Shown here one piece after another: positions 624 through 49,057 of a stretch of DNA of 49,057 bases. This DNA is from Archangium sp. (lineage in GTDB: Bacteria; Myxococcota; Myxococcia; Myxococcales; Myxococcaceae). Position numbers and translations under genes: made by a program. Position 1 is the first letter of the stretch. Every line of letters starts with the position of its first letter. The stretch spans positions 1-49,057 of the forward strand of contig JANLPS010000080.1 in NCBI GenBank assembly GCA_031367385.1, in the 5' to 3' direction. The notes beneath the pieces are model-generated. The model did no database searches, was not told the DNA's origin, and worked only from the letters and a program-made list of their open reading frames with translations.

Positions 624-1483
624 TTACGGTGATCGCGGGGCCGACGGCCTCGGGCAAGACCGCGATGGCTTTGGCCGAAGCGAAGAAGCTCGGAGCCGAG
701 ATCGTCAACGCCGATTCGCAGCAGGTGTACCGGTACTTCGACATCGGTACCGCCAAGCCGAGCGCCCAAGAGCTCGCCGCGGTGCCGCACCACGTGATCT
801 CCTGCATCGACCCGCTGGGTGAGTTCTCAGCCGCTCAGTATCAGCGGCTGGCTGACGCGGCGATCGCCGACATCACGTCGCGAGGGCGCCAGGTGGTCGT
901 GGTGGGCGGCACCGGCATGTACTTGCGCATCTTGCTTCATGGCGTCGTCGATGCACCCGGCAGTGACGCCGGGCTGCGAGCTGAGCTCGAGACACACGAG
1001 AGCGCTGAGCTTCATGCCCGGCTGCACGAGGTCGACCCAGAGACCGCGGCGCGGCTCCCGGTGGCCGACCGGGTTCGCATCATTCGGGCGCTCGAGATTC
1101 ACCAGCTCACCGGCAAGCCAGCGTCAGTGCATCGCGCGGAACATGCCTTCGCGCCAGACCGCTACGCCCACCGGCTGCTGGTCTTGAACCCCGACCGGGC
1201 GGCGCTCTACCAGGCGATCAACACCCGCACCCAACGCATGTTCGAAGGCGGTCTCATCGAAGAGACCAAGTCACTGGTGGCGAGGGGGTATCGAGAAGCC
1301 GCGCCGATGCGAGCAGTCGGCTACACCCAAGCACTCAAGCACCTCGACGGCGCGATGACCCTCGACGAAGCGATCGCCGATACCGCACTGAAAACGCGGC
1401 ACTACGCGAAGCGGCAATTCACCTGGTTCAAGAAAGAACCCGGCGCGGTATTTCTCGCGCACCCGTATCGTCTCGAGAATTGA
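620..1483 (+). CDS. miaA: tRNA dimethylallyltransferase
   Basis: GPTASGKT P-loop, DSQQVY, IGTAKP, GGTGMY, RIIRALE and YAKRQFTW motifs. Confidence 0.97.
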   Translation: MITVIAGPTASGKTAMALAEAKKLGAEIVNADSQQVYRYFDIGTAKPSAQELAAVPHHVISCIDPLGEFSAAQYQRLADAAIADITSRGRQVVVVGGTGMYLRILLHGVVDAPGSDAGLRAELETHESAELHARLHEVDPETAARLPVADRVRIIRALEIHQLTGKPASVHRAEHAFAPDRYAHRLLVLNPDRAALYQAINTRTQRMFEGGLIEETKSLVARGYREAAPMRAVGYTQALKHLDGAMTLDEAIADTALKTRHYAKRQFTWFKKEPGAVFLAHPYRLEN

Positions 1484-1522
1484 GAATCAGCAACCGCTCG
1501 CCGCTTCGTTCGAGAATCGTGC

Positions 1523-2122
1523 ATGGCCCTGACCCTCTCGCAGCTGGTTGATTCGAAGATTCGCAAGGCGAAGATCACCCCTGCCGATGCGCGCGAGGTG
1601 CTCGCCGTCGTCGAGAAAGATTCGAAGTACGACAAAGCCGAAGTGACGCAACTGCGCCGTCTCACCGCGCTGCCCGCCTCGAAATTTCAAAAGAAAGACG
1701 AGTTCATACCCAACCCGAGCGACGCCGATGACGGCGTGACCGTCACCGCCGACCCCAGAAAATGGCTCAAGGGAGCGGTCGAGTTGGCGACGGCCAAGCT
1801 CACCGTTCGCTCCACCATACCCGAGGTGTCGATCGCGCTGTCTGACGTGAAAGAATACGACGTTGAAGACTTCGGTACCCACCTTGCCCGCTCGCTCGAC
1901 GTGACGGTCAAAGGTCGCAACGCGGCCCAGGCCGGTACCATCGCGTTCAGCTACGGCTCGAAGAAGATCGAAGTGCCGGTGAAGAAGGGCGAGTCGATGT
2001 TCTCAATCAACGAGAAGATCGAAGCCAAGTTGCTCAAAGCGCAAGGCGGCAGCCTCAGCATCAACGGCTTCATTAGCGCCAATCGAACCGCGCCTCAGAC
2101 CGTGAAGTACGAGGTGCTGTAA
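1523..2122 (+). CDS. hypothetical protein
   Basis: 199-aa ORF with host-like codon usage; no motif recognised. Confidence 0.7.
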   Translation: MALTLSQLVDSKIRKAKITPADAREVLAVVEKDSKYDKAEVTQLRRLTALPASKFQKKDEFIPNPSDADDGVTVTADPRKWLKGAVELATAKLTVRSTIPEVSIALSDVKEYDVEDFGTHLARSLDVTVKGRNAAQAGTIAFSYGSKKIEVPVKKGESMFSINEKIEAKLLKAQGGSLSINGFISANRTAPQTVKYEVL

Positions 2123-2125
2123 CCG

Positions 2126-3322
2126 TCAGCTTGCAGTTTCGCGCGTTGAGGTCGGCTCGTGGCCCACGAATGAGCGGCGCGTCCACACGTGAATTGACCC
2201 GATGACGGCTGCCGTCGCGACTGCGCCGAGCACCGGTATCGGCTGAAGCAATGTTAAAGCGAACAGGCCGAGGCCCTTGAAGATGCGGGCGCCCAGATGC
2301 TCTTGCCACCCGGAGTACGAGGCCAACGCGCCTGCCGGCGAGAGTCGGTAGAAGACCAGCGCTGCGCCCAGCCCAAGCACCGGCACCAGCCCCATCGCGA
2401 TGAAGACGGGGGCGAACGCGAGCGCTCGCTTGTCGACATGGGTGACGAACGCACGAACTTCGGCGGGGTCTCCGAGGGGGTTCACGCCGCAGCCAGGGCA
2501 GGTGATGTGGCCGGCATCGTTGCGAATGCCTTCAGCGCACGAAGGGCAGCGCCTCGAGGTGAGTAACGAGAGTCGATGTGAGGGTGAAGGCGGCCCGGTC
2601 ACGATTCGGCCCAATGCGCCGATTCGGCTCGGTACTCGCGAGGCCTTGCATCGAGGGCACACGCTGGCGGCGCGGTGAAGTGACTTGCCGCACGCTTCAC
2701 ACGGCCCTCGGGCGAGCGCTTGAATGCCTCGCAGCATCATCAACGCCGCGAGCATGGCGAGGAGTGACAACACCATCATCACGAAGCCCACCACGGGCCA
2801 GGTGACCACGATGGCCAGGCCGACGACAGTGGTGACCATCTCCGCGAGAAAGATCGCCTGCTGCACTTTGCCTTCGCCCACGAAGGGTATGACCTCGGCC
2901 GCTGAGGCGAGCCATTGCCGCAGCTTGGCGAAGAAGAACGCGGTGATGCCGACCGCGATCGTGATCACCGCATTGCGATCGAACCCAGCCAACGCCACCA
3001 CTGCCGCCGCGGGCGCAGCCGTCGAAAGCATGAAGCTCGCGAAAAGCATCGCGGCCACCGGCACCGCCAACAGCTTCAGCTGGCTGGCAAATCGCCCCCA
3101 CTGCTCCCGTGCATAGCGCATCATGCTGGTGAGCATCGCCACCTGGGCGACGGTGCCAAGAACCGACGCGACCAACGCGAAGACAATCGTCTTGGGTGTC
3201 AGCTCGTGTTGCGCTCGCGCACTTTCGACCAGGCCCCACGCGAGCATCACGCCAATGGCAAACGTGGTGCGCCCAGCAAGAAACGGCACCACGGCGAAGC
3301 ACAAGAAGATGACTTCCATCAT
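2126..3322 (-). CDS. multi-pass membrane protein with double zinc ribbon
   Basis: Many hydrophobic segments; four CxxC motifs (CEAC, CPRC, CPSC, CPGC). Confidence 0.7.
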   Translation of the reverse strand: MMEVIFLCFAVVPFLAGRTTFAIGVMLAWGLVESARAQHELTPKTIVFALVASVLGTVAQVAMLTSMMRYAREQWGRFASQLKLLAVPVAAMLFASFMLSTAAPAAAVVALAGFDRNAVITIAVGITAFFFAKLRQWLASAAEVIPFVGEGKVQQAIFLAEMVTTVVGLAIVVTWPVVGFVMMVLSLLAMLAALMMLRGIQALARGPCEACGKSLHRAASVCPRCKASRVPSRIGALGRIVTGPPSPSHRLSLLTSRRCPSCAEGIRNDAGHITCPGCGVNPLGDPAEVRAFVTHVDKRALAFAPVFIAMGLVPVLGLGAALVFYRLSPAGALASYSGWQEHLGARIFKGLGLFALTLLQPIPVLGAVATAAVIGSIHVWTRRSFVGHEPTSTRETAS

Positions 3323-3388
3323 TCGCTTTCAGTGAAGAGCCTGGCCCCCAACGGCGTGGCCACGCCATCGACTCAAGATCGTGGTCTT

Positions 3389-4135
3389 TTAGCGACGCAT
3401 GAAGCGCGAGCGCCGGCCGCCGCCCTGAAACTGGGCCTGCTGCATCGGAGGCGCCTCGAGGCCGAGCTGGTACCACATCGGCACCCAGGGCTGCATCTTC
3501 AGCTTCTTGTCGTTCTGGAGGGCCGTCAGGGCTGACTTGAGCTTGTCGTCTGCGGGGTTCGCTTCAACGCCGCGCGCGAGCACGCGAACGGCCTTGTCGC
3601 TCTCTTTGTTCTGCATGAGGCACCAGGCGTATGAAGCCCAGATCAAACCTTCTTTCTTGCCGCTGTTCACTGCCGCTTCGAAGGTCTTCTCCATCGCGGC
3701 AAAGTCTTTCTTCTGAAAGTAGACCGCGGCTTCCATCGCCTTTGCCATGTAGTTGCGGTTGCTCGTCTTCGCGAACGAGGCCATCGCGCCTTGATGATCT
3801 TTGAAGAGGTACTTGATCATGCCGATCTGCCCGTGCACTTCGCTCTCGACCAAGAACTGCCAGCGGCCCAACGGCAGCGCCGACTCGAGCATCTTCACGG
3901 CCTTGTCGGCCTTGACCTTTTGCTCCTTGGGGTTGGGAGACATCGACTGCAGCTCGGCCTGCACCTCGCCCATGATCTTCTGGAGCGCGAGGAAGGTTCG
4001 GCGCCCCAACAAGATGAAAACACCGACGAAAACCAGAGTACCGGGGATAATGCCGGCGATAAGACTGAAGCCGAAGAGCGTGATCACCACGGTGGTGACG
4101 AGACCGGCGGCGAGGGCGAACAGCAGGTTGAACAT
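3389..4135 (-). CDS. membrane-anchored TPR-like protein
   Basis: Two N-terminal TM helices followed by TPR-like helical repeats; likely start ATG4135. Confidence 0.75.
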   Translation of the reverse strand: MFNLLFALAAGLVTTVVITLFGFSLIAGIIPGTLVFVGVFILLGRRTFLALQKIMGEVQAELQSMSPNPKEQKVKADKAVKMLESALPLGRWQFLVESEVHGQIGMIKYLFKDHQGAMASFAKTSNRNYMAKAMEAAVYFQKKDFAAMEKTFEAAVNSGKKEGLIWASYAWCLMQNKESDKAVRVLARGVEANPADDKLKSALTALQNDKKLKMQPWVPMWYQLGLEAPPMQQAQFQGGGRRSRFMRR

Positions 4136-33347: not shown

Positions 33348-33929
33348 ATGACCCCGGCGCGTACCGATGCAGAGCTGGTCGCGGCGATCGAGGCGATGTA
33401 CCGCATTCGCGCCGTCGAATCGCCGCCTGACGCAAAGGGTCAAAGAACCATCTGGCACCGGGCCAATCGAAACGCGGAGTTGGTGACTGAAGTCGATGCC
33501 GACGGCCGGGTGCTGCGGCAAGAGCTGATGCTGTTCGACGACATCTTGGTGTGGGACCGCGCGGGTGGCCTCAAGACCGGCGTCGTGGTGCCCACCGTCG
33601 GTTCGCGGGTGCTCAAGCCGTCTGACTCGGTCACGCTCGATGAGGCGGTCGCCGAAGACCGCGTCAGTCGAATGAGCCGAGGCCTGGCCGCGTACGGAGG
33701 TGATGACCGTTTCATCAGCCACATTCGCGAGCTGGTGCAGCCGCTGGCCGCCGCGATTGACTTCGGGCATCCGGTCATCACGCGCAGCTCGAATGAGATC
33801 TTGAAGCATATTGAAGAGAGCCGGCCGGGCGTTGCGAAGCCGACGTCGCGTGCACCCGTGCTCGCGATGGTGATTGGCCTCGTGCTCTTGCTGCTGGCGG
33901 TGGCGTTGGTGCTCGTCTTCTGGGAATAA
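33348..33929 (+). CDS. hypothetical protein with C-terminal TM anchor
   Basis: Host-like codons; hydrophobic C-terminus. Confidence 0.7.
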   Translation: MTPARTDAELVAAIEAMYRIRAVESPPDAKGQRTIWHRANRNAELVTEVDADGRVLRQELMLFDDILVWDRAGGLKTGVVVPTVGSRVLKPSDSVTLDEAVAEDRVSRMSRGLAAYGGDDRFISHIRELVQPLAAAIDFGHPVITRSSNEILKHIEESRPGVAKPTSRAPVLAMVIGLVLLLLAVALVLVFWE

Positions 33930-33945
33930 AGGGGAGTACGAGACG

Positions 33946-34982
33946 ATGGAAAGCCAGCGCGTCTCGAGCTTCGGCACGACGATCTTTACTGAGATGTCGC
34001 GACTTGCGCTCGAGGTCGGCGCGGTCAATCTGGGCCAGGGCTTCCCCGACTTTGATGGGCCCGAAGAGGTTCGCGAGGCGGCGATTCACGCGATTCGAAG
34101 CGGGGTGAATCAGTATGCCGTCACCATCGGCGCGCTCAGCAGATTGACTCGGCGAACCAGGTCATCGTCACTTCGGGAGCGACCGAGGCGATCTTCGACG
34201 CGGTGATGGCGTTCGTCGACCCGGGCGACGAGGTCGTGCTCTTCGAGCCGTTTTACGACTCGTACCAGGCGAGCGTGAAGATGGCCGGGGGCTCGGCGAA
34301 ATATGTGCGCATACGGCCTCACGACGCGGGGCATGAGACGTGGTGGTTCGATGAGACCGAGCTCGCCGCGACGTTCAGTGAGCGCACGGCTTTGGCGATC
34401 ATCAACCCGCCGAACAACTCGTCAGGCAAGGTCTTCACCCGCGATGAGTACGAGCACCTCGTGTTCGCGCCGCGACGTTCGTGCGCCCGGCGGCGGGGGC
34501 AAGAGCTTCTCGTTCACCGGGTGGAAGGTAGGCTGGGCGCTCGGGCCTGCGAAGCTCGTCGCCGCCGTGCAGAAAAGGCGCATCAGTGGGTGACCTTCGC
34601 GACGTCGGCTCCGTTTCATGTGGCGATCGCGACGGCGCTCACGTTGCCCGACTCATACTTCACGCAGTTTCGAGCCGACTCCCTGCGCAAGCGCGATTTT
34701 CCGGCGGCGGCGCTGAACGGCATCGGGCTGCCGACCTACCGCTGCGACGGCGCGTCCTTCTTGATCGCTGATATTTCGAAGACCCGCTTCGAGAACGATG
34801 TGACGTTCTGCAAGTGGCTCACGACCGAGGTGAAGGTCGCGGCGATACCGCCCTCGGTGTTCTACGTCGACCCGGCTGATGCGAAGGGCCTGGCGCGGTT
34901 CGCGTTCTGCAAGACCGACGCGGTGCTCGCTGAGGCCGCGAGTCGCCTTGCTCCGCTTGGCAGAGCTGCCTCGGCTCAATAG
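33946..34982 (+). pseudogene. class I PLP aminotransferase (YbdL/methionine aminotransferase-like) pseudogene
   Basis: NLGQGFPDF, TSGATEA, EPFYDSY and GKSFSFTGWKVGW lie in different frames, with internal deletions. Confidence 0.88.
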
Positions 34983-35848
34983 TAGTAGGCCGAACACACA
35001 TCGCTCGACGACGGTGTCTTTTCTCTGATCACGATGCTGCCCGCGTAGGTCACCCCGTTGGTGACGCAGTTGCCGCCTGAGCAGACGCTGTTGCAGCTGC
35101 CCATCGGCGTGAAGCCGCTGCAGCCATACGAGGTCGCGCAGGTACGACCCCAGGCGCCGGCCAAGCCTGCATTGCTGCACATCTGCTGCGTGTAGGGTAA
35201 ATTCGAATAGCCGGTACACCTGGCGTAGTACGTCTTGTTGTAGTTGCAGGTATAAGCCGTCGGGTTGGGGCCGAACACGTTGCCCCAGAATTTACCCTCG
35301 AGAATCTGAAACGAGCCTTCAGCGGCACTGTCGTAAGCCAACGTGTCGCTCTGGAGCGATATCTGAACGACCTGCCCAGCCGAGTTGACGTGAGCCATCA
35401 GACACGCCGTGACTCGCTGCTGGTCGGCGACTGTCGGGTTGCCATACTTCCAGTTCGGAGCAACACCCAGCGCGCCGGGCCACGCGTACGTGCGAAAAGT
35501 GACCTGTTCGCCGGCCGGGAGCGCGCACCTGACGAAGTACTTCATCCATTCCGCTGCGGTTGGCGTCGAGTCGAACCACGTGTTGAAGGCCGCGTTCCCC
35601 GCTCCCTCCGCGATCACCGCGCCACCGCTGAGCACGGTTCTCAACCCGTTTGCCGAAAAACCATTCGCGCTGAACCCGTTCGCGCTGAACCCGTTGGCAG
35701 AAAACCCGTTCGCGCTGAACCCATTCGCGCTGAACCCGTTGTCGTCGTTTATTTCGGCTTTCGAGACGCCCACCGACTCGGTTTCATCGAGTTGTTGTAC
35801 GCCGCACGCTGTGAACAGCACACACGCAGCCAGCCAGTTGGTTTTCAT
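34976..35848 (-). CDS. lipoprotein with NGFSA pentapeptide repeats and Cys/His-containing domain
   Basis: Lipobox FTAC; (NGFSA)6NG; YFVRCALP, GALGVAPNW, ACLMAHVN. Confidence 0.8.
   Translation of the reverse strand: MKTNWLAACVLFTACGVQQLDETESVGVSKAEINDDNGFSANGFSANGFSANGFSANGFSANGFSANGLRTVLSGGAVIAEGAGNAAFNTWFDSTPTAAEWMKYFVRCALPAGEQVTFRTYAWPGALGVAPNWKYGNPTVADQQRVTACLMAHVNSAGQVVQISLQSDTLAYDSAAEGSFQILEGKFWGNVFGPNPTAYTCNYNKTYYARCTGYSNLPYTQQMCSNAGLAGAWGRTCATSYGCSGFTPMGSCNSVCSGGNCVTNGVTYAGSIVIREKTPSSSDVCSAYYY
35645..35740 (-). repeat. 15-bp coding tandem repeat (NGFSA x6 + NG)
   Basis: AACGGGTTCAGCGCG units with synonymous variants. Confidence 0.95.
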
Positions 35849-35978
35849 GAGCTGACCTACAGCAACCGTCGTACCCATCGAGCCCTTGACTGAGATCAAC
35901 GCGTTACCCGTCAGCGGCGCTGCGCGAGATGGCTAACAGATGCGCAAGTCGCTCCAGAAAGCACCGTGAAGTCTTTCG

Positions 35979-38218: not shown

Positions 38219-39888
38219 TCAACGCAAACACACGTCGACACAGAGGTTGCGCTCGCACGCATTGGAGGCGCAGTCGAAGTCAAACTGGCACGAGGCACCG
38301 CCAGGGCGCGGCGCGACACACTTCGTGCCATCGCAGCTCAGCCCGACATCACAATGGCTGCCGATCGCTGCGCACCCAGCGTCGAGTTGCAGCAACGGCT
38401 GGCAGGTCGTGCCAACTCCGTAGGCGCAGGTCGAATCTCGCCGGCAGAGCGCACTCGGGCAGGGTTGACCGCGCACAGGCAGTGCCCCACATTCGCGACC
38501 CCATCTGAGACGCCGAGGCACTGCAGCCCCGTCGCGCACCAAAAGTCTTCGCGACATGGAGTACCAGCCGCCAGTGGAGGCAGACACAGGCCCTTTTTCG
38601 CCGCGCTCCCGCTCGTCGTGAGACACGTCAGGCCCCGTTGGCATGCGGCGACCCCGTAGGCCGGTGCAAGCTCGTACTCAAAGCTTGGCAAAAGAGGGCA
38701 CTCGGCCCCCATGGGGAGACTGAACGACGCCAGCGACACACAGCGCCCGCCCAGACACGCCGCGGTGCCTCCCGCACACGGGTCGGCAGGCGCACCCCAG
38801 TCGTCGTTGCAGGTCTCGCCTAGCACTCGCCGTGGCGCGCACCTGCCCAGCGTCACCCCGGCGTCTGCCAGCACCAGCCCCAGACAAATATTCGGTGAGC
38901 TGTAGTTTCCGCAATCGGAGGCGGCGGCACATGGAGCTCCAAGCGCGAGTGGCCCGCATTTCGAGTCGGTCGGTCGACACAGCCCGCTCGAGCACTGGGC
39001 GCTCTTGTCACAGCTCACGTTGTCAGCCCGGGTTGCCTGGCAGGCGAACTGCCCAGCGACGGGGTACTCACAATAGCTGCCGGGCTCACACGGAGCCGCC
39101 CGACAGTCGTCTCCAACTCGCGCGAGGGCTTGGCACGTGTCGACCCGGCACCACGCGGTCGCGGGGTTGCAATATGCGAATGGCCCCGAAAACCCCTCGT
39201 TGCAGGACTGGCCGACTTCTCGAAACGGCTGGCAACTCGCACCTGAGCAGAGCTGATCGCAGCGCCCGGCGTCACACACGGTGTTGCGACAGGCATACGC
39301 GCGGGCCGTGAACACCCCTCCGAACCCCACGCCCGGCACGGTACTCGGGTTGTAAAGCTGCAGGCACGCGCTCCAATTGCTGAAGCACGTGGTGGTCGCG
39401 GCTCCGAGCTCATCGAGACACGCCTGGGCCAAGACGCTGTCGTACTCATACGCGCCGGCGGCTGCCTTGGCACACGCAACACTCAGGCTCTGCATCGCCA
39501 AGCACGAGGTTGAATTCGCCGATTCGTAGAGGCCGCACCCGGCGAAGTGTTGGCAGGCTTTTTCGGGGTATTTTGCGCAGAATTCGGCCAAGGCAATTGA
39601 CGCAGGGCCTGCGTCAGGTGCAATCAGACCCGAGTCTGCGGCGCTTGCGTCGGGTGGGCTCACCCCTGAGTCTGCGGCGCCTGCGTCATGGCGGGAGCCC
39701 GCATCGACTTCGCTGATGCCGCCGTCGTCGTCTTTGGTGACTGTGCCGCCGTCGACTTCAGTGCCACCGTCCGCGCACACTCCACTGTCGCAGGCGAACC
39801 TCTGAATGGAGCTCAAATCAATGCACACGCAGCTGGTCAGCGTTGTAACAGCCGCCCCGAGCACCACCGCCCCGTACACAGTTCGCAT
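38219..39888 (-). pseudogene. Cys-rich (Dickkopf-like repeat) lipoprotein, frameshifted near 38480
   Basis: Lipobox LTSC and DAG linker; Cys repeats switch frame after GHC and continue to VDVCLR*. Confidence 0.65.
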
Positions 39889-39897
39889 CGGGTGAAC

Positions 39898-40593
39898 CTA
39901 TGCTACCCGAGCCTCAAATCGGTACCCTACGCCACGAATCGTGTGAATGGTGAACCCGGCTTCGGGCGACCAGGCCAGCTTCTTCTTCAGGCTCGAGACG
40001 AAGTTGTCGACGGTGCGCGGGTCGACCACCAAATCGCGCCCCCAGACCTCGTTCAAAATGTCGTCGCGGGTCAATGCTCGGTCTTTATTGCGCACGAGGT
40101 ACACCAACAGGTCGAGCTCGGTGCGCGTCAGGTCGATTGGGGCGGTGGTACTTCGGCGCGTGAGGGTTCTCTTGGTGAGGTCGAGCGCGAAGTCGGCGAA
40201 CTCGAGCGTCTGCGCAGGCAACGCCGGTGGAGCGCCTCGGCGAATGAGGGCCCCGACCCGGGCCAAGAGCTCTCGCAGTCGGTACGGCTTGGTCACGTAG
40301 TCTTGAGCGCCCGCCTCGAAGCCGCGAATCACGTCGTCTTCGAGGCTGCGTGCGGTGAGCATCAAGACCGGCAGAATCATGCCCGCCCCGCGCATTCGCC
40401 GGCACCAGGTGTACCCATCTTCACCGGGCAACATCACGTCGAGAATGACGAGGTTGAAGTCGCGCTGGGCCATCGCTTGCTCAGCTTCAGTGATGCTCGC
40501 GCACGCCACGACCTCGTAGCCTTCGGCGTGCAGGTTGTACTGCAGCCCCTCGCGAAGGTTCTGATCGTCTTCAACCACTAGAATCGATGTCAT
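39898..40593 (-). CDS. OmpR/PhoB-family response regulator
   Basis: ILVVEDD, LDVMLP, LTAR, KPY; wHTH VDNFVSSLKKKL...TIRGVGYRF. Confidence 0.95.
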   Translation of the reverse strand: MTSILVVEDDQNLREGLQYNLHAEGYEVVACASITEAEQAMAQRDFNLVILDVMLPGEDGYTWCRRMRGAGMILPVLMLTARSLEDDVIRGFEAGAQDYVTKPYRLRELLARVGALIRRGAPPALPAQTLEFADFALDLTKRTLTRRSTTAPIDLTRTELDLLVYLVRNKDRALTRDDILNEVWGRDLVVDPRTVDNFVSSLKKKLAWSPEAGFTIHTIRGVGYRFEARVA

Positions 40594-42182
40594 GCGCGTG
40601 TCGGCCGAGCGAAGGTGAGGGCGAAGGTGGTGCCACGGGGGCTGGAGGACTCGATCGTGATGCGGCCTCCATGCAGACGCAAGATTCGTCGACACAGCGC
40701 GAGGCCAAGGCCGCTGCCGTGCACCTCGGTGCCGCTGGGTTTGAGGCGGTAGAAGTCGTGAAAGACGTTCTCCCATTCGTCACCAGCGATGCCGATGCCG
40801 TTGTCGATGAAACGAAGGGTGACGGAGCCCGCGACGTCGCGTTCGGCACGCACCGAGATCTCGACGGAGGGGCGGTCGTTGTAGGCGCAAGCGTTGCGGC
40901 CCAGGTTGATGAAGAGCAACCGCATCAGCGCTGGGTCGGCGAAGAGCTCGAGGTCGTCACCGGTCAGTGAGAGGTGCACCGGCTTGGCGCTGGCATCGGT
41001 CAGGTCGGCGCGCAGGTCGTCGACCAGCGCGTCGAGCCGGAGCACCTTGGGCTCCGCGACCCAGCGGCCTTTCGTGACCTGATTGAACGACAGAATGTTC
41101 TCGACCAGAAAGTGCAGGCCGTCGGCGACGCGCACGATGCGACCGGGGAACTGCTTGATGGTCTCGTCGAAGGCGCCAGTGCCGCTCCGCTCGAGCGTCT
41201 CAGCAAGGAGTCGAATCGAGGCGAGCGGTGTGCGCAGCTCATGCGAGACGGTCGCCACGAAGTCGCTCTTCAGCTCGAGAAAACGCTCTTTGCGTCGCTG
41301 CCCCAGAATGCCGAACACCGTCAGCGCGATTGCCAGCAGCCCGCAGACGATGACCATCGCGTTCTTGAGGCCGTATCTCCGCGCGAGCTCGGCTTCGGCG
41401 AGCCCGACGAGGCGCAGGTCGGCGTTCACCTCCAAGAGGTTCATTCGCTGCACCGGGTCGACTTCGACGCTGAGCCGATCGTCGGCAGAGAGCACTCCCT
41501 CGGCGCGGAGCCGGCGCGAGACTTCGCTGAGCATCTGATCAAGCGGGGCTTCGATGCCGCGATCGTCATCGGGAGTGACCGGTTCGACGTACCAGGTCTG
41601 ACGAAACAGGGTCGGGCCGGCGAATCTCGAGGGCAGAACGGGCACTCCGGTCTCGAGCTCGTGCAGGGCCTTCACGAAACGTTCGGTTGGCTCGCGGTGC
41701 TCGTGAGATCGTTCGAGGATCTTCGATGCAAGAAAGTCGAAGTCGGGCTGCGAGAGCTCGCTGGCTTCGCGCAGCAGGTGTTGCTGGAGATCTCCGTCGG
41801 GAACCTGCCCGGACAGGATGGCCCATCCGAGGCCGCAGGCTTCTCCGTTCTTGAAGCCGTGCATCACCGGCGCCTCATCGACCGCGCGCGGCCGCACCAT
41901 GCTGGGCAGCTCCATGTGGCCGGAGTGAACCCACAACGCGCGTGGGTCGCGCTCGAGTGGGTCGGGCGATGCGGTGCGAATCGACTCGCGCAAAGTGCTC
42001 GCATACAGCGCGCGGAGCTCATCAGCCGCACGTTGGGCGACCGCGCGACGTTGACTCGTGAGCTGCGCCTTCGCCGCCTCGTTCTCCTCAGCGAACATGC
42101 GCTGCAAGGTGACGAGGCCCCACGCCAGGGCGATGAGACCAACACCAAGCGCAACGAATGCGGGAAGAAGCCGGCGGAACAC
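40590..42182 (-). CDS. sensor histidine kinase
   Basis: Two TM helices; SHELRTPL H-box, NACAY, DNGIGI, GSGLGL. Confidence 0.93.
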   Translation of the reverse strand: MFRRLLPAFVALGVGLIALAWGLVTLQRMFAEENEAAKAQLTSQRRAVAQRAADELRALYASTLRESIRTASPDPLERDPRALWVHSGHMELPSMVRPRAVDEAPVMHGFKNGEACGLGWAILSGQVPDGDLQQHLLREASELSQPDFDFLASKILERSHEHREPTERFVKALHELETGVPVLPSRFAGPTLFRQTWYVEPVTPDDDRGIEAPLDQMLSEVSRRLRAEGVLSADDRLSVEVDPVQRMNLLEVNADLRLVGLAEAELARRYGLKNAMVIVCGLLAIALTVFGILGQRRKERFLELKSDFVATVSHELRTPLASIRLLAETLERSGTGAFDETIKQFPGRIVRVADGLHFLVENILSFNQVTKGRWVAEPKVLRLDALVDDLRADLTDASAKPVHLSLTGDDLELFADPALMRLLFINLGRNACAYNDRPSVEISVRAERDVAGSVTLRFIDNGIGIAGDEWENVFHDFYRLKPSGTEVHGSGLGLALCRRILRLHGGRITIESSSPRGTTFALTFARPTRA

Positions 42183-42431
42183 GGGAGCTCAGAGCATACC
42201 GTTCATGTCGAGGACTCGAACCTTCCTGTTTCATTGGGTTCTTCCCAGTCGCGCAGGCCCCGGCGGTTTCCACGTGACGGGTTTGAGACACAAGCGCCAC
42301 CGAGGCGACGCTCAGCACTCGCCCGGTCACGCCGAGTTGCGCGCTCGTGACCGAGCAATGCCCCAACTGTCACCGTGAATTCGAACCCGCAGAGGTATTT
42401 CGCTCTCGCACTTTACGAAAGGGCATTACCC

Positions 42432-43595
42432 ATGAACCGAATCGCTCTCACCGCATCGTTGGCGCTCTTTTCAAGCGCTGCCTTTGCGGCTCCCTGCAGC
42501 GCGCTGGTGAACCCCGTCTACATCACGGGTTCCAGCGCGGTGAAACCCATCTTGGCGGCCGTCTCGGCGCCACTTCTCGCCGGCACGCCGTCGGTGACCA
42601 TCGTCTACAAATCGCAAGGCTCGTGCGCCGGCGTTGATGCCATCGCCAACGGCACCGTCATCCCCGCGGGTGCGGCGTCGTACTGGGTCGCTGGAGTCGA
42701 ATCGACCTGTGACCTGCCTGGCACCGGCATCGCCGCCGACATCGGCGCTTCAGACGTCTACGCCGACACCTGCGGCATCACGCTCGACGCGGCCAAGGGC
42801 GAGTTCTCAGGCCCGATTCAAGTCATGAACTTCATCGTGCCGGTCGGCTCGAACGAGAGCGCGATCAGCGAAGAGGCCGCCAACGTGCTCTTCAAGTTCG
42901 GCGGCGTGAACAAGGTCGTCGCGCCGTGGAGCAACAAAGACTTCTTCTTCATGCGCCCCGACAGCTCAGGCACCAAGCAGATGATCGCCAAGGCGATTGG
43001 CCTGCCCGCCGCGAGCTGGATCGGCACCAGCAAAGCCGGCTCAGGCGACGTGCTCTCGGCGGTCGGCGGCTCGACCAGCCCGGCGACCACCATCGGCATC
43101 TTGGCGTCAGACCTCGCAGACAAGAGCCGCGACAAGGTCAAAGTCTTGGCCTACCAGGCGAAGAACCAGCTGTGCGGCTACCGACCCGATCTCGGCGCGG
43201 GCACCTTCGACAAGAAGAACGTACGCGACGGGCACTACCCCATCTGGGGGCCGGTGCACTTGCTCGCTTCGAAGACTGGCGACATCGCGACGAATGTGAA
43301 TGCACGCGCGGTGATCGACTTCTTGGGCATGAAGGCCACTGCCGAAGCCGACGTGAAGATCGTGATCAACGCGATCAGCGCTGCCTACTCGGTGCCTGAC
43401 TGCGCGATGAACGTGAAGCGCACCACCGAGATGGGAGCGCTCTCGTCGTACCAGCCCGACCGCCCCTGCGGTTGCTACTTCGAAAGCAAGAACGGCGGGG
43501 CTTCGGCCAGCTGCCACATCTGCACCACCAACACCGAGTGCGCGACTGTTCCTGGCGCTCCGACCTGCCGTTACGGCTTCTGCGAGGCGAAATAA
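42432..43595 (+). CDS. PstS-like (PBP2) substrate-binding protein with Cys-rich C-terminus
   Basis: Signal ending AFA; ITGSSA, QGSCAG, ADIGASD, RPDSSGT, GHYPIW. Confidence 0.75.
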   Translation: MNRIALTASLALFSSAAFAAPCSALVNPVYITGSSAVKPILAAVSAPLLAGTPSVTIVYKSQGSCAGVDAIANGTVIPAGAASYWVAGVESTCDLPGTGIAADIGASDVYADTCGITLDAAKGEFSGPIQVMNFIVPVGSNESAISEEAANVLFKFGGVNKVVAPWSNKDFFFMRPDSSGTKQMIAKAIGLPAASWIGTSKAGSGDVLSAVGGSTSPATTIGILASDLADKSRDKVKVLAYQAKNQLCGYRPDLGAGTFDKKNVRDGHYPIWGPVHLLASKTGDIATNVNARAVIDFLGMKATAEADVKIVINAISAAYSVPDCAMNVKRTTEMGALSSYQPDRPCGCYFESKNGGASASCHICTTNTECATVPGAPTCRYGFCEAK

Positions 43596-43598
43596 CTT

Positions 43599-43880
43599 AT
43601 GAAAGCTCTTCGATTGACGATGTTGGGTCTTGGTGCGGCGCTGGCCATGGTTGCGTGCGGCAGCCCTTCAACCACAGTTGACGGTGGCACCGGTGGCGGC
43701 TCGGGCGGCGGCACTGGTGGTGGCGGAGGCTCGATGGCTGTCGACTCCGGCACCGTGTGTACCCCTGACGCGGGCACCTGCAATTCGTGCCTCGCCGCTG
43801 GTGCCGACCTCGGCAACCAGTGCGTCGCTGGCACCGGCAACTGCATTCACTTCGACAACTCGCGCGTTCCGGCGCCCTGA
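43599..43880 (+). CDS. small Gly/Cys-rich lipoprotein
   Basis: Lipobox VACG, Gly linker, C-terminal Cys cluster. Confidence 0.75.
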   Translation: MKALRLTMLGLGAALAMVACGSPSTTVDGGTGGGSGGGTGGGGGSMAVDSGTVCTPDAGTCNSCLAAGADLGNQCVAGTGNCIHFDNSRVPAP

Positions 43881-43919
43881 GGTCTGACCGATGACGCGAC
43901 GTGGTTCGACAGGCTCACC

Positions 43920-45245
43920 ATGAGAGTTCCGCACATGATGGTGGCGGCGCTCACGGCGCTGCTCTCTGGGTCGGTCTTCGCGCAGGTCGAAGACGTCGAT
44001 GGCGGAGCTTCGTCGGGTGAAGTCGATGCGGGTGAGGCGAGGGTTCTTCCGGCCGAGCGGGGGCCCTCGCTCTTCACCTCGATCACCGATGGGCTGGCGG
44101 TCACCGGGTATGCCCAGGCGCAGTACGAGATGCATCAAGACTCGGTCGAGCAGCTTCGACAGGGCTCGAATGTGTTGAACCAAGACCGCTTTTTGCTGCG
44201 TCGCGGCCGCGTGCGCGTCACCGGCACGTGGGAGTACGCGCAGATCGTGCTCGAGGTCGATGGCAACACGACCCGTGCACCGGTGTTCGGCTTTCGCAAG
44301 GCTGAGGTGTCACTGAAGTGGCGCGCATCGACCGACCCGGGTGCATTGGCGTTGATGCTCACCGGTGGCCTGTTCGACGTGCCGTTCGGCGCCGAGCTGG
44401 TCGAGTCTCCGCGGTACCGCCCGTTCATGGAGCGCTCGCTCGCCTCACGTGCGCTCTTCCCCGGCGAGCCGGATTTGGGCGTGCGGTTGTCGTTGTCGTG
44501 GTCGTTTCTGCGGTTGACCGCGGCGGTGGTGAATGGTGAGCCGATTGACGAGCCCAGCGCGTTCACCTTGCGAGATGCGAACAAGGGCAAAGACATCGTC
44601 TTTCGCGCTGGCGTTGACACCAAGCCGACAGAGCACTTGCACGTGACAGGCGGCCTGTCGGGTCTGACCGGCTGGGGCTTTCACGCGGGCTCCGATGTGA
44701 GCAAAGGGTACGTCGAGTGGAGAGACCTGAATGAAGACGGGCAGGTGCAGCAGTACGAGCTGACTCCGGTGGTGGCGGCGTCGGTCGACCCGTCGGTGAG
44801 CTTCGCGCGCTGGGCCACGGCGATTGATGCAGCCGTCTCGCTCGACTGGCGCTGGGGCACCACGTCGCTGAGCGGAGAGCTGGTGCTGGCGACGAACCTC
44901 GACCGCGGGTTTCTGCCTGCAGACCCCACGGTGCTGAGCGTCGATGCACGTGAGCTGGGGTGGCATGTGCGCTTGATTCATGAGTTTCAGAAGTGGGCGG
45001 TGATCGGCGTTCGGTTCGATCAGTACAACCCGTCGATCGACTTCTTCGACAACCGCAAAGGCAAGCTCATCGGCTCGGTACAGACGGTGTCGACGGTGTC
45101 GCCGCTGATCGGGTTCAAGGTGCCGCATGGCCGGCTGTACCTGCAATACGACGTGATCGTCGATCGCCTTGCGCGTGGCACCGATGGGGTGCCGAGTGAC
45201 CTTCGCAACGACACGTTCACGGCGCGCCTCCAGGTGGATTTATGA
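43920..45245 (+). CDS. outer membrane porin, OprO/OprP-like
   Basis: GYAQAQY, RFLLRRGRV, GLFDVPFG.E, FMERS; ends RLQVDL. Confidence 0.75.
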   Translation: MRVPHMMVAALTALLSGSVFAQVEDVDGGASSGEVDAGEARVLPAERGPSLFTSITDGLAVTGYAQAQYEMHQDSVEQLRQGSNVLNQDRFLLRRGRVRVTGTWEYAQIVLEVDGNTTRAPVFGFRKAEVSLKWRASTDPGALALMLTGGLFDVPFGAELVESPRYRPFMERSLASRALFPGEPDLGVRLSLSWSFLRLTAAVVNGEPIDEPSAFTLRDANKGKDIVFRAGVDTKPTEHLHVTGGLSGLTGWGFHAGSDVSKGYVEWRDLNEDGQVQQYELTPVVAASVDPSVSFARWATAIDAAVSLDWRWGTTSLSGELVLATNLDRGFLPADPTVLSVDARELGWHVRLIHEFQKWAVIGVRFDQYNPSIDFFDNRKGKLIGSVQTVSTVSPLIGFKVPHGRLYLQYDVIVDRLARGTDGVPSDLRNDTFTARLQVDL

Positions 45246-46174
45246 GTGCGCGGCGAGAGCCTCCAGGAGCGGCCACCTGCTTGTTTCTCAGCTGTTTGCT
45301 GATTGCCTGCGGCCCGGCCGACCCCTTCGGTACTGCCGAGCCGTTTCAAGTGCGTGGCGGCCAGTTCTTCAAGGGCGCGCTGCCGACGGCTTCGGTCGAC
45401 GCACCCGCTGTCACCTTCTTGTCGATGCAAAACGCCGTGGTCCTGCCGGGCCAGGCCGCCAAGCGCCTCTCCGCACGGGCCAACACCGCGACTTCTTCGC
45501 TGGCCCTGGCGCTCAGCGACTCAGGCACCGGCTACTGGGTGGTGCCGCTCGGCCCCGAAGACCCCCAATACGTTGGCGAATTCACGGTGGAGTCATCAAT
45601 CGACTTCGGCCTCTCACTCGCCGAAGGCCCGCACCTCATTCGCGCGGTGCCGATTGACGAGCAGCACCGGGCCGGCGCCGAAGCCCAGACCAGCGTGTGC
45701 GTTGCCTCGCGAATCCCCGACAACCAGCACGTCTGCAACCCTGACGCGGTGGTGCCCGACGCGGTGATCTCCCTGCAGTGGGACTCGCGTTCAGATGTCG
45801 ACCTGGTGGTGACGACGCCAGAAGGTCGTGAAGTGTCGCCAAAGCGCCCGACCGTGGTGCCAACCGACACCCGCCCGACGGCCGAGGCCGCGGTCATCGA
45901 CCGAGATTCGGTGTTCGCCTGCCAAGAAGACGGTCTTCGACAAGAAGACCTGGTCTTTCAGAATCGCCCCGTTGGCGCCTTTCGCGTCGCAGCCTCGCTG
46001 TTCGATCTCTGCCAGGCCCCGGGCGTTCGATTTCGCCTGCGCGTCTTCGAAGCAGAAGGCGAGGGCGCCGAGCGCCACCTCGTCGAAAAAGATTCGTTCG
46101 TCGGTCAATTCACGCCGATCGAAGCCACCGGAGGCCTCACCGCTCCGGTTCTCATCACCACCTGGACGTTTTGA
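45242..46174 (+). CDS. lipoprotein with YfaP/DUF2135-like domain
   Basis: Lipobox IACG; ISLQWD..SDVDLVV.TPEG motif. Confidence 0.65.
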   Translation: MSARREPPGAATCLFLSCLLIACGPADPFGTAEPFQVRGGQFFKGALPTASVDAPAVTFLSMQNAVVLPGQAAKRLSARANTATSSLALALSDSGTGYWVVPLGPEDPQYVGEFTVESSIDFGLSLAEGPHLIRAVPIDEQHRAGAEAQTSVCVASRIPDNQHVCNPDAVVPDAVISLQWDSRSDVDLVVTTPEGREVSPKRPTVVPTDTRPTAEAAVIDRDSVFACQEDGLRQEDLVFQNRPVGAFRVAASLFDLCQAPGVRFRLRVFEAEGEGAERHLVEKDSFVGQFTPIEATGGLTAPVLITTWTF

Positions 46175-46196
46175 TTCAACAAGGGAGCTGAACGAC

Positions 46197-46916
<720 letters not shown>

Positions 46917-46919
46917 GTC

Positions 46920-47333
46920 ATGGCTGCTGCGCTCTCGAGTGGCAAAGGCCGTCGCGGTGGCATCGTCGGCATCAACGTCACCCCGATGGTCGACGTGGTG
47001 CTGGTGTTGCTCGTGATCATGATGGTGTCGGCCACCTACATCGTCTCGCAGAACCTGCAGGTCGAGCTGCCGAAGAGTCAGTCATCTGACGAGCCGGTCT
47101 CGACGGTGACGCAGGTGTCGATTGCGAAAGACGGCAAGCTGGGGTTCAACGGCACGCCGATCGACGAAGCCGGGCTGGTCTCGCAGCTGAAGACCGCCAT
47201 CGCCGGCAACCCCGACTTGAGCCTGGTGATCGCCGCTGACGCTGCCGCGCAACATGGCGCCGTGGTGCACGTGATCGACCTGTCGAAGCGCGAGGGCATC
47301 ACCAAGTTCGCCATCAACATCGAACGGGAGTGA
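46920..47333 (+). CDS. exbD: ExbD/TolR biopolymer transport protein
   Basis: INVTPMVDVVLVLLVIMMV and IAAD motifs. Confidence 0.93.
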   Translation: MAAALSSGKGRRGGIVGINVTPMVDVVLVLLVIMMVSATYIVSQNLQVELPKSQSSDEPVSTVTQVSIAKDGKLGFNGTPIDEAGLVSQLKTAIAGNPDLSLVIAADAAAQHGAVVHVIDLSKREGITKFAINIERE

Positions 47334-47337
47334 CCCC

Positions 47338-48054
47338 ATGGCCGCGGCTGCGTCACTTCATGCACCGAAGACAACGAGCACTCCGAGATGGGTGCTGTAC
47401 GCGGTCAGCGCGATCGCCCACGTTGCGTTGGCGGTGCTGATCTTCGCGTACCCGGTTCACAAGCCGAAGAAATTCGAGAAGGTGGCGGTCGCGATTCACG
47501 AGACCAAAAAGGCGAAGCCGCCTGAACCGGTGAAGCCGCCCGAGCCTCCGAAGGCCGAGCCGCCTCCACCGCCCGCTCCGAAGGCGGCGGCTCCGAAGGC
47601 TCTGGCACCTCCCAAGGCGGCTCCGGCCGCGGCGCCGGCAGCGGTCGCGTCGGCGGTGCCTGATCTCGGCATGGTGGGTGGCGGGCCCGGCGGCAACGGG
47701 CCGGTGCTCCCTGCCGCGGGTGGGCCGACCCGAGAGGCCGATTCAAGCAAGCCTCCGGCGCCTCATGACGAGTGCGCTGAAGGGCCGACCAAGGCCAAGC
47801 GCGTCGAGGGGCCACAGCCGACCTACACGCAAGAGGCGCGGGAGGCCGAGGTCGAAGGCGTGGTGAAGATCGAGGTCACCATCGACGAGAGCGGCAAGGT
47901 GGTCTCGGCGAAGATCGTCGTGAGCCTCGGGCATGGGCTCGATGAAGCGGCGCTCGAGGCGGCTAGAGAATGGCAGTTCGAGGCGGCCACCCGGTGCGGC
48001 AAGGCCATCGCGGGGTCATCGACCTTGCCGTTTCGCTTCAAGTTGGATTCGTGA
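47338..48054 (+). CDS. tonB: TonB energy transducer
   Basis: S..AH TM helix, PK-rich linker, YTQEAREAEVEG...LDEAA. Confidence 0.9.
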   Translation: MAAAASLHAPKTTSTPRWVLYAVSAIAHVALAVLIFAYPVHKPKKFEKVAVAIHETKKAKPPEPVKPPEPPKAEPPPPPAPKAAAPKALAPPKAAPAAAPAAVASAVPDLGMVGGGPGGNGPVLPAAGGPTREADSSKPPAPHDECAEGPTKAKRVEGPQPTYTQEAREAEVEGVVKIEVTIDESGKVVSAKIVVSLGHGLDEAALEAAREWQFEAATRCGKAIAGSSTLPFRFKLDS

Positions 48055-49057
48055 TCGTGCGCGCTCTGGTCACATCGGTGTTGCTGACCGGGTTCGCCGC
48101 GTTCGCGCAGACCGAGGCCCCAGTCGAGGCTGCCGCGGTCACGCCGCCCGTCTTGACCAAGTTCGTCGAGGCGCCGTTTCCTGAAGCAGAGAAGGCGTCG
48201 GGGCGGGGCGCGAGCGTCGTGCTGCAGCTCTCGATTGATGAGAAGGGCGCAGTGACGTCGGCGACGGTGCTCACTCCGGCGGTCAGCCCGGCGTTCGATG
48301 AAGCGGCGGTCAAGGCCGCGCAGCAATTCGTCTTTTTGCCAGCCACGCGGGGCGGAGTGCCCTTGGCGGTGAAACTGTCGTACCGATACGACTTCGTGTG
48401 GAAGCAGGAGATGGTGCTCGTGCAAAAGGCCACCGCTGACTTCGTCGGTCTGGTTCGCGATGGCACCTCGAAGGCCCCACTCGCCGGAGCCGTGGTGAAG
48501 CTCGACTCTGGCCAGACCGCCACGACCGATGCCGAGGGCAGATTCTCGATCTCCGACATCGTGCCGGGAGATCACCAAGTGAGCGTGAAGTTGAAGTCGC
48601 TGCCCGGCGTGAAGACGCGCGAAAAGTTCGAGGCCGGCAAGAAGGTCGACGCGACCTATGAGCTGACGACCGAGAAGCCGAAGAAGCCGGCGAGTGAAGA
48701 CGATGAGATCGTCGTGACCGCGCCGCGCATCACCCGGCAGGTGCTGGTGACCGAGGTCAAGACCGAGCAAGCCCGCAAGGTGCCAGGCACGCAGGGCGAC
48801 GTGCTCAAGGTCGTCGAGAACCTGCCCGGGGTGGCGCGCGCTGCGGCAGGGTCGGGGCAGCTGGTGGTGTGGGGTGCGGCTCCGGAGGACACGCGCGTGT
48901 ACCTGGGCGGCGTGCGATTGCCTCGGCTGTACCACGACGGTGGTTTTCGCTCGGTCATTCACTCTGACCTGGTGCGCTCGGTCGAGCTGATACCAGGCGG
49001 GTACGGCCCGACGTACGGGCGTGGCCTCGGTGGTCTGGTCACCGTGCAGTTGCGGCC
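48051..49057 (+). CDS. TonB-dependent receptor with N-terminal TonB-C and carboxypeptidase-regulatory-like domains (partial, runs off window)
   Basis: GTG48051 open to window end (absent from ORF track): signal, FPEAEK..V.LQL.IDE.G.V...FDEAA, TTDAEGRF, EIVVTA, LPGV, GGYG..YGR.LGGLV. Confidence 0.9.
   Translation, partial: MIVRALVTSVLLTGFAAFAQTEAPVEAAAVTPPVLTKFVEAPFPEAEKASGRGASVVLQLSIDEKGAVTSATVLTPAVSPAFDEAAVKAAQQFVFLPATRGGVPLAVKLSYRYDFVWKQEMVLVQKATADFVGLVRDGTSKAPLAGAVVKLDSGQTATTDAEGRFSISDIVPGDHQVSVKLKSLPGVKTREKFEAGKKVDATYELTTEKPKKPASEDDEIVVTAPRITRQVLVTEVKTEQARKVPGTQGDVLKVVENLPGVARAAAGSGQLVVWGAAPEDTRVYLGGVRLPRLYHDGGFRSVIHSDLVRSVELIPGGYGPTYGRGLGGLVTVQLR

Follow-up and report, generated by a model that had tools for sequence, protein, structure and literature searches.

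What does a binding protein of the PstS class do in an operon that encodes a porin, lipoproteins and a TonB system and no permease? This question is raised by the end of a contig from Archangium sp. (GenBank assembly GCA_031367385.1, contig JANLPS010000080.1), whose 49,057 nucleotides constitute the window analysed here and equal the whole of contig C46 of the source genome (G000). An initial annotation of this DNA had proposed an energised system for scavenging an anion or a phosphorylated macromolecule, and had missed what we regard as the main novelty of the locus, namely that a small lipoprotein (lipo1) is the near-constant partner of the PstS-fold phosphate-binding-type protein (PBP) and its predicted covalent anchor. 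On balance, we lean towards a reading in which the operon encodes a Pho-induced outer-membrane unit for scavenging phosphorus, combining a tethered and probably surface-facing phosphate trap with an OprP-type porin and with TonB-driven import of a larger phosphorus compound. The parts of this unit, a PstS fold, an OprP-type porin and TonB import, are familiar. A search of the full-text literature, which lay outside the primary Myxococcus xanthus Pho-regulon studies and their supplements, found neither the operon architecture nor the anchoring of a PstS protein to a lipoprotein by a disulfide, and the tether between PBP and lipo1 is apparently undescribed.

The binding protein and its lipoprotein partner

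The pair is defined by the following features.

42432..43595, plus strand: PBP, PstS-fold phosphate-binding-type protein of 387 amino acids with 13 Cys and a Sec-type signal recognized by eye
S34, S35, A36, S64, D108, R175, S179, G180 and T181 of PBP: predicted phosphate site
43173..43175, plus strand: Cys248 of PBP, whose predicted bond partner is Cys82 of lipo1
43599..43880, plus strand: lipo1, lipoprotein of 93 amino acids with lipobox Cys20, a Gly/Ser/Thr linker and a C-terminal Cys module at about residues 53-93
43842..43844, plus strand: Cys82 of lipo1, which co-varies with Cys248 of PBP

Lipo1 is built from a lipobox, a linker that varies between 10 and 83 residues within the family, and a C-terminal Cys module of about 47 residues. 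A profile of this module detects it beside or fused to PBP at 103 of 109 loci (27 downstream, 52 upstream and 24 fused, with one of the fusions being C-terminal), and it is found in 45 of the 48 long PBP family representatives among 150 listed. In the window and at locus L031 the module scores below the profile threshold, yet is present, and its one distant match belongs to a second PBP copy. The mature PBP contains an odd number of Cys residues (13). Cys248 and the third core Cys of the module, Cys82 in lipo1, are both present in 85 of 96 pairs and both absent in the other 11. With 46 fused representatives and the paralog of the source genome included, both are present in 125 of 143 pairs and both absent in 18, with no mismatches; in the added rows, the state of the module Cys was assigned by visual inspection of the alignment. 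Among 349 × 48 inter-chain columns, Cys248-Cys82 is the top pair (z 9.2, followed by 6.1 for the next), other variable Cys residues of the module show correlations of at most 0.26, and mapping the states of both positions on a tree yields eight changes. Where Cys248 is lost, the PBP core changes from 12 to 11 Cys residues and, together with the N-terminal Cys, the count becomes even.

The simplest reading of this pattern is a predicted inter-chain disulfide between Cys248 and Cys82, and we consider it highly probable that PBP is tethered to lipo1 in this way. As 18 of the 143 pairs lack both Cys residues, the module would also bind non-covalently or is simply fused. A comparison of the Cys module with PBP as an internal repeat was negative, and a search for longer fused forms returned two proteins, neither with an informative extra domain, which is weak evidence. 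The single predicted bond between two proteins offers a sharp and cheaply testable feature, and its confirmation would show how a soluble binding protein is anchored through a second gene product.

The assignment of PBP to the PstS class, previously proposed for a PstS-like protein carrying a Cys-rich tail, is borne out by structure prediction. The AlphaFold2 model (pLDDT 93.9) aligns with the Lactobacillus brevis protein 4ecf at a VIA Z-score of 25.0 and a root-mean-square deviation of 2.9 over 252 residues. The top 13 rows of the VIA ranking are all phosphate-binding proteins, with a sulfate binder at 14.6 and a molybdate binder at 14.2, and Foldseek agrees in placing the PstS class nearest. 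As judged from its model, PBP thus has a PstS-class type II periplasmic-binding-protein fold, in a comparison that barely covers the tail beyond residue 355 or so.

Nine residues are listed as phosphate ligands of Clostridium perfringens PBP-1 (PMC5381212). Alignment to 4q8r and 4exl finds six of these positions identical in PBP, while T12 is replaced by S35, S13 by A36, and the position of Ser59 by an Asp. In the binding-site description of the same source, an Asp at the Ser59 position is tied to high phosphate selectivity and S13 is a backbone contact. Among 242 family rows the site is kept at S64 (222), D108 (217), R175 (231), S179 (205), G180 (215) and T181 (215), so that residues of the putative phosphate site appear conserved and PBP is predicted to bind inorganic phosphate. 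Against the PstS family model TIGR02136 PBP scores 40.8 bits (cut-off 206.6), and TIGR00975 gave no PBP match at E 1e-8.

When compared to the canonical proteins PBP-1 (4gd5 and 4q8r), 4ecf and the Streptococcus pneumoniae protein 4exl, PBP shares the predicted fold (Z 23-25) and the site residues, whereas it differs in its low identity of about 20%, its insertions, its 13 Cys and Cys-rich tail, an operon without permease and its pairing with a dedicated anchoring lipoprotein module. PBP would thus work like PstS without being a canonical member, because it scores below the family cut-off and has no permease of its own. Where pst clusters adjoin the operon in relatives (L095, L102 and L131), these carry their own pstS. 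A PstS fold outside the classical periplasmic shuttle role is also found in secreted or surface proteins such as DING and LapA, and in the lipid-anchored PstS of Gram-positive bacteria. PBP resembles these proteins in this respect and differs in its anchoring, which is predicted to proceed through an inter-chain disulfide to a second gene product or through a fused module. The Stenotrophomonas maltophilia protein 5jk4, which we take to be of the DING type, ranks lower against the PBP model (Z 16.9).

This likeness raises the possibility that PBP is no phosphate trap and instead has a phosphoester or a different oxyanion as ligand or substrate and feeds the porin or the receptor. We regard this as improbable. 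Its large insertions and Cys-rich tail are absent from PstS structures, an almost invariant Cys65 (238 of 242 rows) adjoins the site residue Ser64, and the equivalent of the Asp that partners the site Arg varies (D177 in 23 of 242), all of which would suit such a role. Conversely, the Asp connected to high selectivity in the respective passage of PMC5381212 is kept (D108), the parity of Cys residues assigns the odd Cys to position 248 instead of 65, and the nearest folds are ABC-type PstS proteins.

Porin, receptor and organization of the operon

The remaining genes of the operon, the last of which lie beyond the end of the window, are as follows.

43920..45245, plus strand: 16-stranded OprP/OprO-like porin of 441 amino acids, paralogous to the porin encoded before canonical pstS in myxobacteria
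44724..44759, plus strand: EF-hand-like loop D269-x-N-x-D-G-x-V-x-x-x-E280, predicted extracellular loop 5 of the porin
45242..46174, plus strand: lipo2, lipoprotein of 310 amino acids with a weak DUF2135 lead, whose start overlaps the stop of the porin
46197..46916, plus strand: ExbB/TolQ-family motor subunit (Pfam)
46920..47333, plus strand: ExbD/TolR-family motor subunit (Pfam)
47338..48054, plus strand: TonB (Pfam)
48051..49057, plus strand: TonB_C-fused TonB-dependent transporter (Pfam), N-terminal 335 of about 876 amino acids
Contig C200 of the source genome (locus L198), 1996-3648, minus strand: remainder of the transporter (barrel), past the window end
Contig C200 (locus L198), 1085-1999, minus strand: lipo3, lipoprotein of 305 amino acids, the ninth gene, after the transporter

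The tightly packed operon of eight plus-strand genes described in the initial annotation was confirmed between 42432 and 49057, with successive gaps of 3, 39, -4, 22, 3, 4 and -4 bp, divergent from a histidine kinase (40590-42182, minus strand) and an OmpR-type regulator (39898-40593, minus strand). Pfam assigns PBP_like_2, MotA_ExbB, ExbD, TonB_C and, in the transporter, TonB_C with CarboxypepD_reg and Plug domains; a Pfam scan of window proteins gave no match for the porin, lipo1 or lipo2. The window ends within the transporter gene, which continues on C200 after a 34-bp exact overlap of the contig ends, and a broken assembly at this gene was ruled out by contigs that span the junction, one of 7603 bp (run X4) and one of 599 bp (run X6), neither run being flagged as a possible source. 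On C200 the transporter barrel (PF00593) is followed by lipo3 and then by an unrelated gene, and the operon consists of nine genes rather than eight. The view that PBP is encoded with a TonB motor and receptor and without an ABC permease was also borne out, as pstCAB is found neither on C46 nor on the downstream contig.

The porin had been assigned to the OprO/P type, a claim with which its model agrees. It contains 16 long strands and, in a structural ranking, scores highest with OprP (Z 27.6) and OprO (27.3), with all others at 24.9 or lower, making these two the closest barrels as far as can be judged from the model; by Foldseek E-values alone OprP and OprO do not come first, and the porin profile gave no significant match among PDB sequences. 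Twenty basic Arg/Lys positions are conserved in at least 85% of 126 rows. The EF-hand-like motif resides in a long loop, which strand counting places outside the cell, with D269 and E280 found in all 126 rows and the full pattern in 102, compared with 0 of 17 loci of the pst-operon paralogs. The window porin thus resembles OprP, OprO and the porin encoded before myxobacterial pstS in its 16-stranded barrel, for which they are the best structural match, and in its many conserved Arg/Lys residues, and it is homologous to the myxobacterial pst-operon porin. It differs from OprP in its identity of only 16%, in the added EF-hand-like loop and in its operon, which includes genes for a TonB system and three lipoproteins. 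PF07396 gave no match on the window protein, appears among the precomputed matches for a minority of the 120 homologs listed and exceeds the cut-off on two pst-operon paralogs. In a stricter first look, intact full-length porin homologs were found beside PBP in 12 of 12 genomes, the source genome included; genome G017 holds a broken porin copy on another contig, and weaker porin paralogs are common in the phylum. In 17 of 17 intact Myxococcota loci fetched (L181-L197), a porin paralog is located directly upstream of a canonical pstS homolog.

Less can be read from the sequences of the receptor and the larger lipoproteins. In NCBIfam, the receptor matches best to the myxochelin receptor MxcH, in an alignment that covers the TonB_C part only and scores 75 bits compared with a cut-off of 925. 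Neither 18 lipo3 nor 22 lipo2 members match the SusD family (PF07980/PF14322), no Pfam family is common to the members of either group and profiles identify no solved relative. In the Atlas, both are surrounded by unnamed clusters from Myxococcota, and only lipo2 has a DUF2135 lead, at 0.85. Elsewhere in the source genome, on C95 and C64 (L199 and L200), two further TonB_C-fused receptors are each followed by a lipo3-like lipoprotein, which suggests that receptor and lipoprotein form a general myxobacterial pair.

The closest functional parallel to the receptor/lipo3 pair is PusCD of Flavobacterium, where, in the accessible text of PMC8115612 and bioRxiv 10.64898/2026.09.03.749221, a TonB-dependent transporter located beside a lipoprotein is tied to phosphate limitation. 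In contrast to the Pus system as presented there, lipo3 shows no SusD-family match and no phosphatase gene was found in the operon; Pus strains mostly lack PstSCAB, whereas the operon-bearing genomes studied here keep it, and the same texts describe no tethered PstS or porin. In Caulobacter, PhoB-regulated TonB-dependent receptors were proposed to import alternative phosphate donors (PMC11208175). They share with our proposal the Pho control of TonB receptors, and the accessible part of that source describes no operon with a PstS-fold protein, a porin and a motor of its own. Because of PusCD and the Caulobacter receptors, as far as these sources describe them, we think it rather probable that the cargo of the receptor is a phosphorus compound.

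Genomic contexts and proposed Pho control

PBP matches were found in 30 of 401 sampled genomes of the phylum, the weakest of which (G005) overlaps an ordinary PstS match, and in 181 of 188 pattern-matched GTDB stretches, of which 80 were kept. The family comprises 629 clusters at 50% identity (E ≤ 1e-30), named records stem mostly from Myxococcota or from unclassified delta- or proteobacterial metagenome-assembled genomes, and annotations read hypothetical or ABC-type only. Vulgatibacter incomptus (P0004, 54%), Labilithrix luteola and Minicystis rosea are among the named cultured bacteria that carry PBP. We analysed 108 loci, which include five duplicate or near-identical ones, all outside context A, that were excluded from alignments. 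In 28 of them the porin directly follows PBP (context A), in 59 genes for a Ser/Thr kinase and/or a TPR-PEGA protein are located in front of PBP (context B, with both in 40), and the other 21 show a different arrangement or are cut by contig ends. Wherever context A offers enough sequence, the order PBP-porin-lipo2-[ExbBD-TonB]-receptor-lipo3, with its lipo3-adjacent transporter, is complete (24 of 24 loci). This outcome answers the synteny question posed in the initial annotation, and because of it the cluster is more than a chance assembly. ExbBD-TonB is present in 20 of the 24 and absent in four.

Canonical pstC is encoded elsewhere in 11 of 12 operon-bearing genomes. A replacement of Pst by the operon was thereby ruled out and the operon therefore adds to Pst; in the source genome the canonical pst/pho homologs are found on C238, C154 and C169. 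With 59 of 108 loci in context B, four of 24 operons without ExbBD-TonB and pstC in 11 of 12 genomes, PBP does not depend on the TonB machinery. In context B (L033-L042, L062, L070-L075 and others), PBP and a Cys-module lipoprotein, often fused, are encoded behind a membrane-bound Ser/Thr kinase and a protein of the TPR-PEGA type, whose end forms a beta-hairpin-like segment with a terminal Phe, and the arrangement is a possible phosphate-sensing kinase cassette. Among the context-B strains is Sorangium cellulosum So0157-2 (L084). The source genome contains a second PBP paralog (C291:615-2066, L201), which is module-fused, lacks both covarying Cys residues and is located some 0.8 kb downstream of a series of genes for large membrane proteins, DUF1302-like barrels and lipoproteins.

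These contexts bear on a further alternative, in which the TonB-dependent transporter would export or display the PBP-lipoprotein pair in a similar manner as Oar acts with PopC in M. xanthus. This myxobacterial precedent (described in the available text of PMC6434023) and the fact that a folded, tethered and exposed PBP has to cross the outer membrane would favour such a role. We nevertheless find it very improbable, since 59 context-B loci have the pair without a receptor nearby, and in its TonB_C-plug-barrel build with a lipoprotein behind it the receptor follows a common myxobacterial pattern.

For the analysis of regulation, the following features of the window are relevant.

42367..42373, plus strand: PHO-box-like single half-site CTGTCAC, 65 nucleotides before the PBP start, with a poor second unit (pair score 4.7)
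42270..42291, minus strand: PHO-box-like pair with 11-nucleotide spacing (score 12.1), which faces the divergent kinase
39898..42182, minus strand: histidine kinase and OmpR-type regulator, local neighbours and not a conserved part of the system

We scored promoters with a half-site matrix derived from 16 units of seven canonical pstS promoters (27 were examined, nine showed a strict match and two were dropped), where the pattern that selected the training sites was chosen after repeats had been seen in context-A promoters and on the basis of the E. coli box. Repeats of the PHO box follow an 11-nucleotide rule (PMC4415409, as given in its accessible part). Upstream of PBP, 17 of 27 relatives contain PHO-like pairs of at least 10 bits, compared with 3.4% of 1514 upstream regions of the source genome and 6.1% of 1071 other genes at the same loci. 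Pairs of at least 14 bits occur at 11-nucleotide spacing in 10 of the 27 and at spacings of 9, 10, 12 or 13 in none of them. The 250-bp upstream region of the window holds four half-sites, as found in 0.8% of background, and the 12.1-bit pair facing the kinase (1.8%); the canonical pst promoters of the source genome are also weak (1.2-10.2). In context B, kinase promoters reach 10 bits in 17 of 42 cases compared with 7 of 103 kinases of the source genome and 8 of 38 unlinked kinases; these matches come mostly from one clade, could equally be an inverted repeat and were not counted as evidence for Pho control. A GTCAC-N6-GT(G/A)AC element recurs in divergent kinase promoters of L073, L085, L088, L090 and L100 and in L033-L041, and could be either a degenerate PHO pair or an inverted repeat recognized by a different regulator.

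Neighbouring genes point in the same direction. At L095 the operon adjoins phoB-phoR-pstSCAB-phoU with ppx upstream, at L102 a phoB-phoR-pstB-phoU-pstS-pstC cluster, and the protein cluster of the ppx neighbour of L095 recurs at L101 and L119. Regulators with PhoB as top match flank the operon in 11 scanned loci at 207-260 bits, which is below the cut-off of 296; these include the two inside the pho clusters of L095 (243) and L102 (254). In a regulator tree ten rows group at 85/90, including those of L095 and L102 and an unscanned sister of that of L121. In addition, two degenerate PhoB-like regulators, whose receiver domains match poorly, are encoded divergently from the operon at L069:8749-9774 and L096:1087-1926. 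The regulator of the window also has TIGR02154 as top match (201 bits, cut-off 296) and forms a long branch outside the ten-row group (85/90) in a tree whose deep forks are unsupported. The window kinase scores 124.5 bits against TIGR02966 in its catalytic core only, compared with 275-277 for PhoR in pho clusters, and by this measure is not a PhoR ortholog; the phoR/phoB homologs of the source genome are found on C154. Its sensor part has no homolog in the 108 loci, so the two-component flank of the initial annotation, although true at this locus, was discarded as a conserved part of the system.

On account of the phosphate site, the ancestry of the porin, the PHO-box-like repeats, and the PhoB-like and pst/ppx neighbours, the role of the operon very probably concerns phosphorus, which narrows the earlier proposal of an anion or phosphorylated macromolecule. 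The further suggestion that the compound may come from prey found no support. The same observations, together with a gene order kept across several families, leave it highly improbable that the genes serve the uptake of a non-phosphorus nutrient such as iron or were assembled by chance, an idea that could draw on the distant resemblance of the receptor to MxcH.

A proposed route for phosphorus and the placement of the binding protein

In the scavenging unit that we favour, PhoB-type control would switch the operon on, as suggested by the promoter repeats and neighbours of relatives, with a weak signal in the source genome. PBP and lipo1 would be exported separately and joined between Cys248 and Cys82, with the lipid and the flexible linker tethering PBP, as predicted from fusion and covariation. 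The tethered PBP, with its conserved site, would bind inorganic phosphate and concentrate it near the OprP-like porin, for which lipo2, coupled to it in gene order, may be a partner. By analogy, ExbBD-TonB would power the import, through the transporter and lipo3, of a phosphorus compound that is larger or less abundant, polyphosphate or a phosphoester for example. Finally, the canonical PstSCAB, whose genes are present elsewhere, would move phosphate across the inner membrane. If correct, this scheme provides a candidate route of phosphorus scavenging in a phylum that is widespread in soil, sediment and sludge.

Several observations weigh against this scheme. The Cys covariation amounts to five independent contrasts on supported branches, which all agree and give p 0.0625 in a sign test, short of 0.05. 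At 59 of 108 loci PBP is found without porin or receptor and must therefore have another use. Ten of the 27 relatives score below 10 bits in their promoters, and the plus-strand box of the window, with its 4.7 bits, is equalled by 97 of 200 shuffles. The receptor/lipo3-like pairs on C95 and C64 imply that such a pair is not phosphorus-specific in itself, and none of the operon genes was recognized as encoding a hydrolase, in contrast to the Pus loci as covered by the accessible text of PMC8115612. Finally, the exposure of PBP rests on the argument that a tether is needed where diffusion is possible, on its heavy disulfide load and on the precedent of CglB, which is described as a Cys-rich surface lipoprotein in the relevant part of PMC9946355.

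Surface exposure is thus the step for which an alternative placement deserves most attention. The same unit and tether could hold PBP on the inner leaflet of the outer membrane, where it would serve beneath the porin as a sink, buffer or sensor in the periplasm. Lipoproteins of the outer membrane are mostly oriented towards the periplasm (PMC9946355, in the same part), the membrane Ser/Thr kinase and TPR-PEGA protein of context B could be reached by a periplasmic PBP, linkers of 10-83 residues permit movement, and all evidence for phosphorus fits equally. Conversely, the retention of a periplasmic binding protein requires no covalent tether, a canonical PstS is already present, and six predicted internal disulfides would suit an exposed protein. 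We thus consider the periplasmic placement unlikely, though the most credible of the alternatives, and hold that PBP rather probably faces the cell surface.

More tentatively, and with doubts that exceed our confidence, we envisage a myxobacterial cell-surface phosphate trap made from two genes, with a PstS-fold protein linked by an inter-chain disulfide to a lipid-anchored mini-domain on a flexible linker, which is plugged either into an OprP-type porin and TonB importer for uptake or into a Ser/Thr kinase-TPR/PEGA cassette for signalling. Such a trap would represent a mode of anchoring for binding proteins that has not been described, and phosphate sensing would gain a new route, in which the kinase-linked copies might supply phosphate as an input to Ser/Thr kinase signalling in myxobacteria.

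Further observations concern other parts of the window. Its DNA is present in sediment metagenomes from two studies, whereas no RNA data set was listed as containing the region, which has no bearing on its expression. In the interval that separates lipo1 from the porin (43895-43932), contigs break in several runs and the depth is high, which suggests a short element that is repeated or palindromic. A gene at 38338-39888 (minus strand), immediately downstream of the divergent regulator, encodes a very Cys-rich predicted lipoprotein of 516 amino acids and is possibly co-transcribed with the two-component pair. A second predicted lipoprotein (34976-35899, minus strand) contains around six FSANG pentapeptides in tandem and has a C-terminus rich in Cys, with GLTT-repeat matches that are sub-threshold only. 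At 33874-34982 (plus strand), an aminotransferase-like gene appears shortened and split over two frames.

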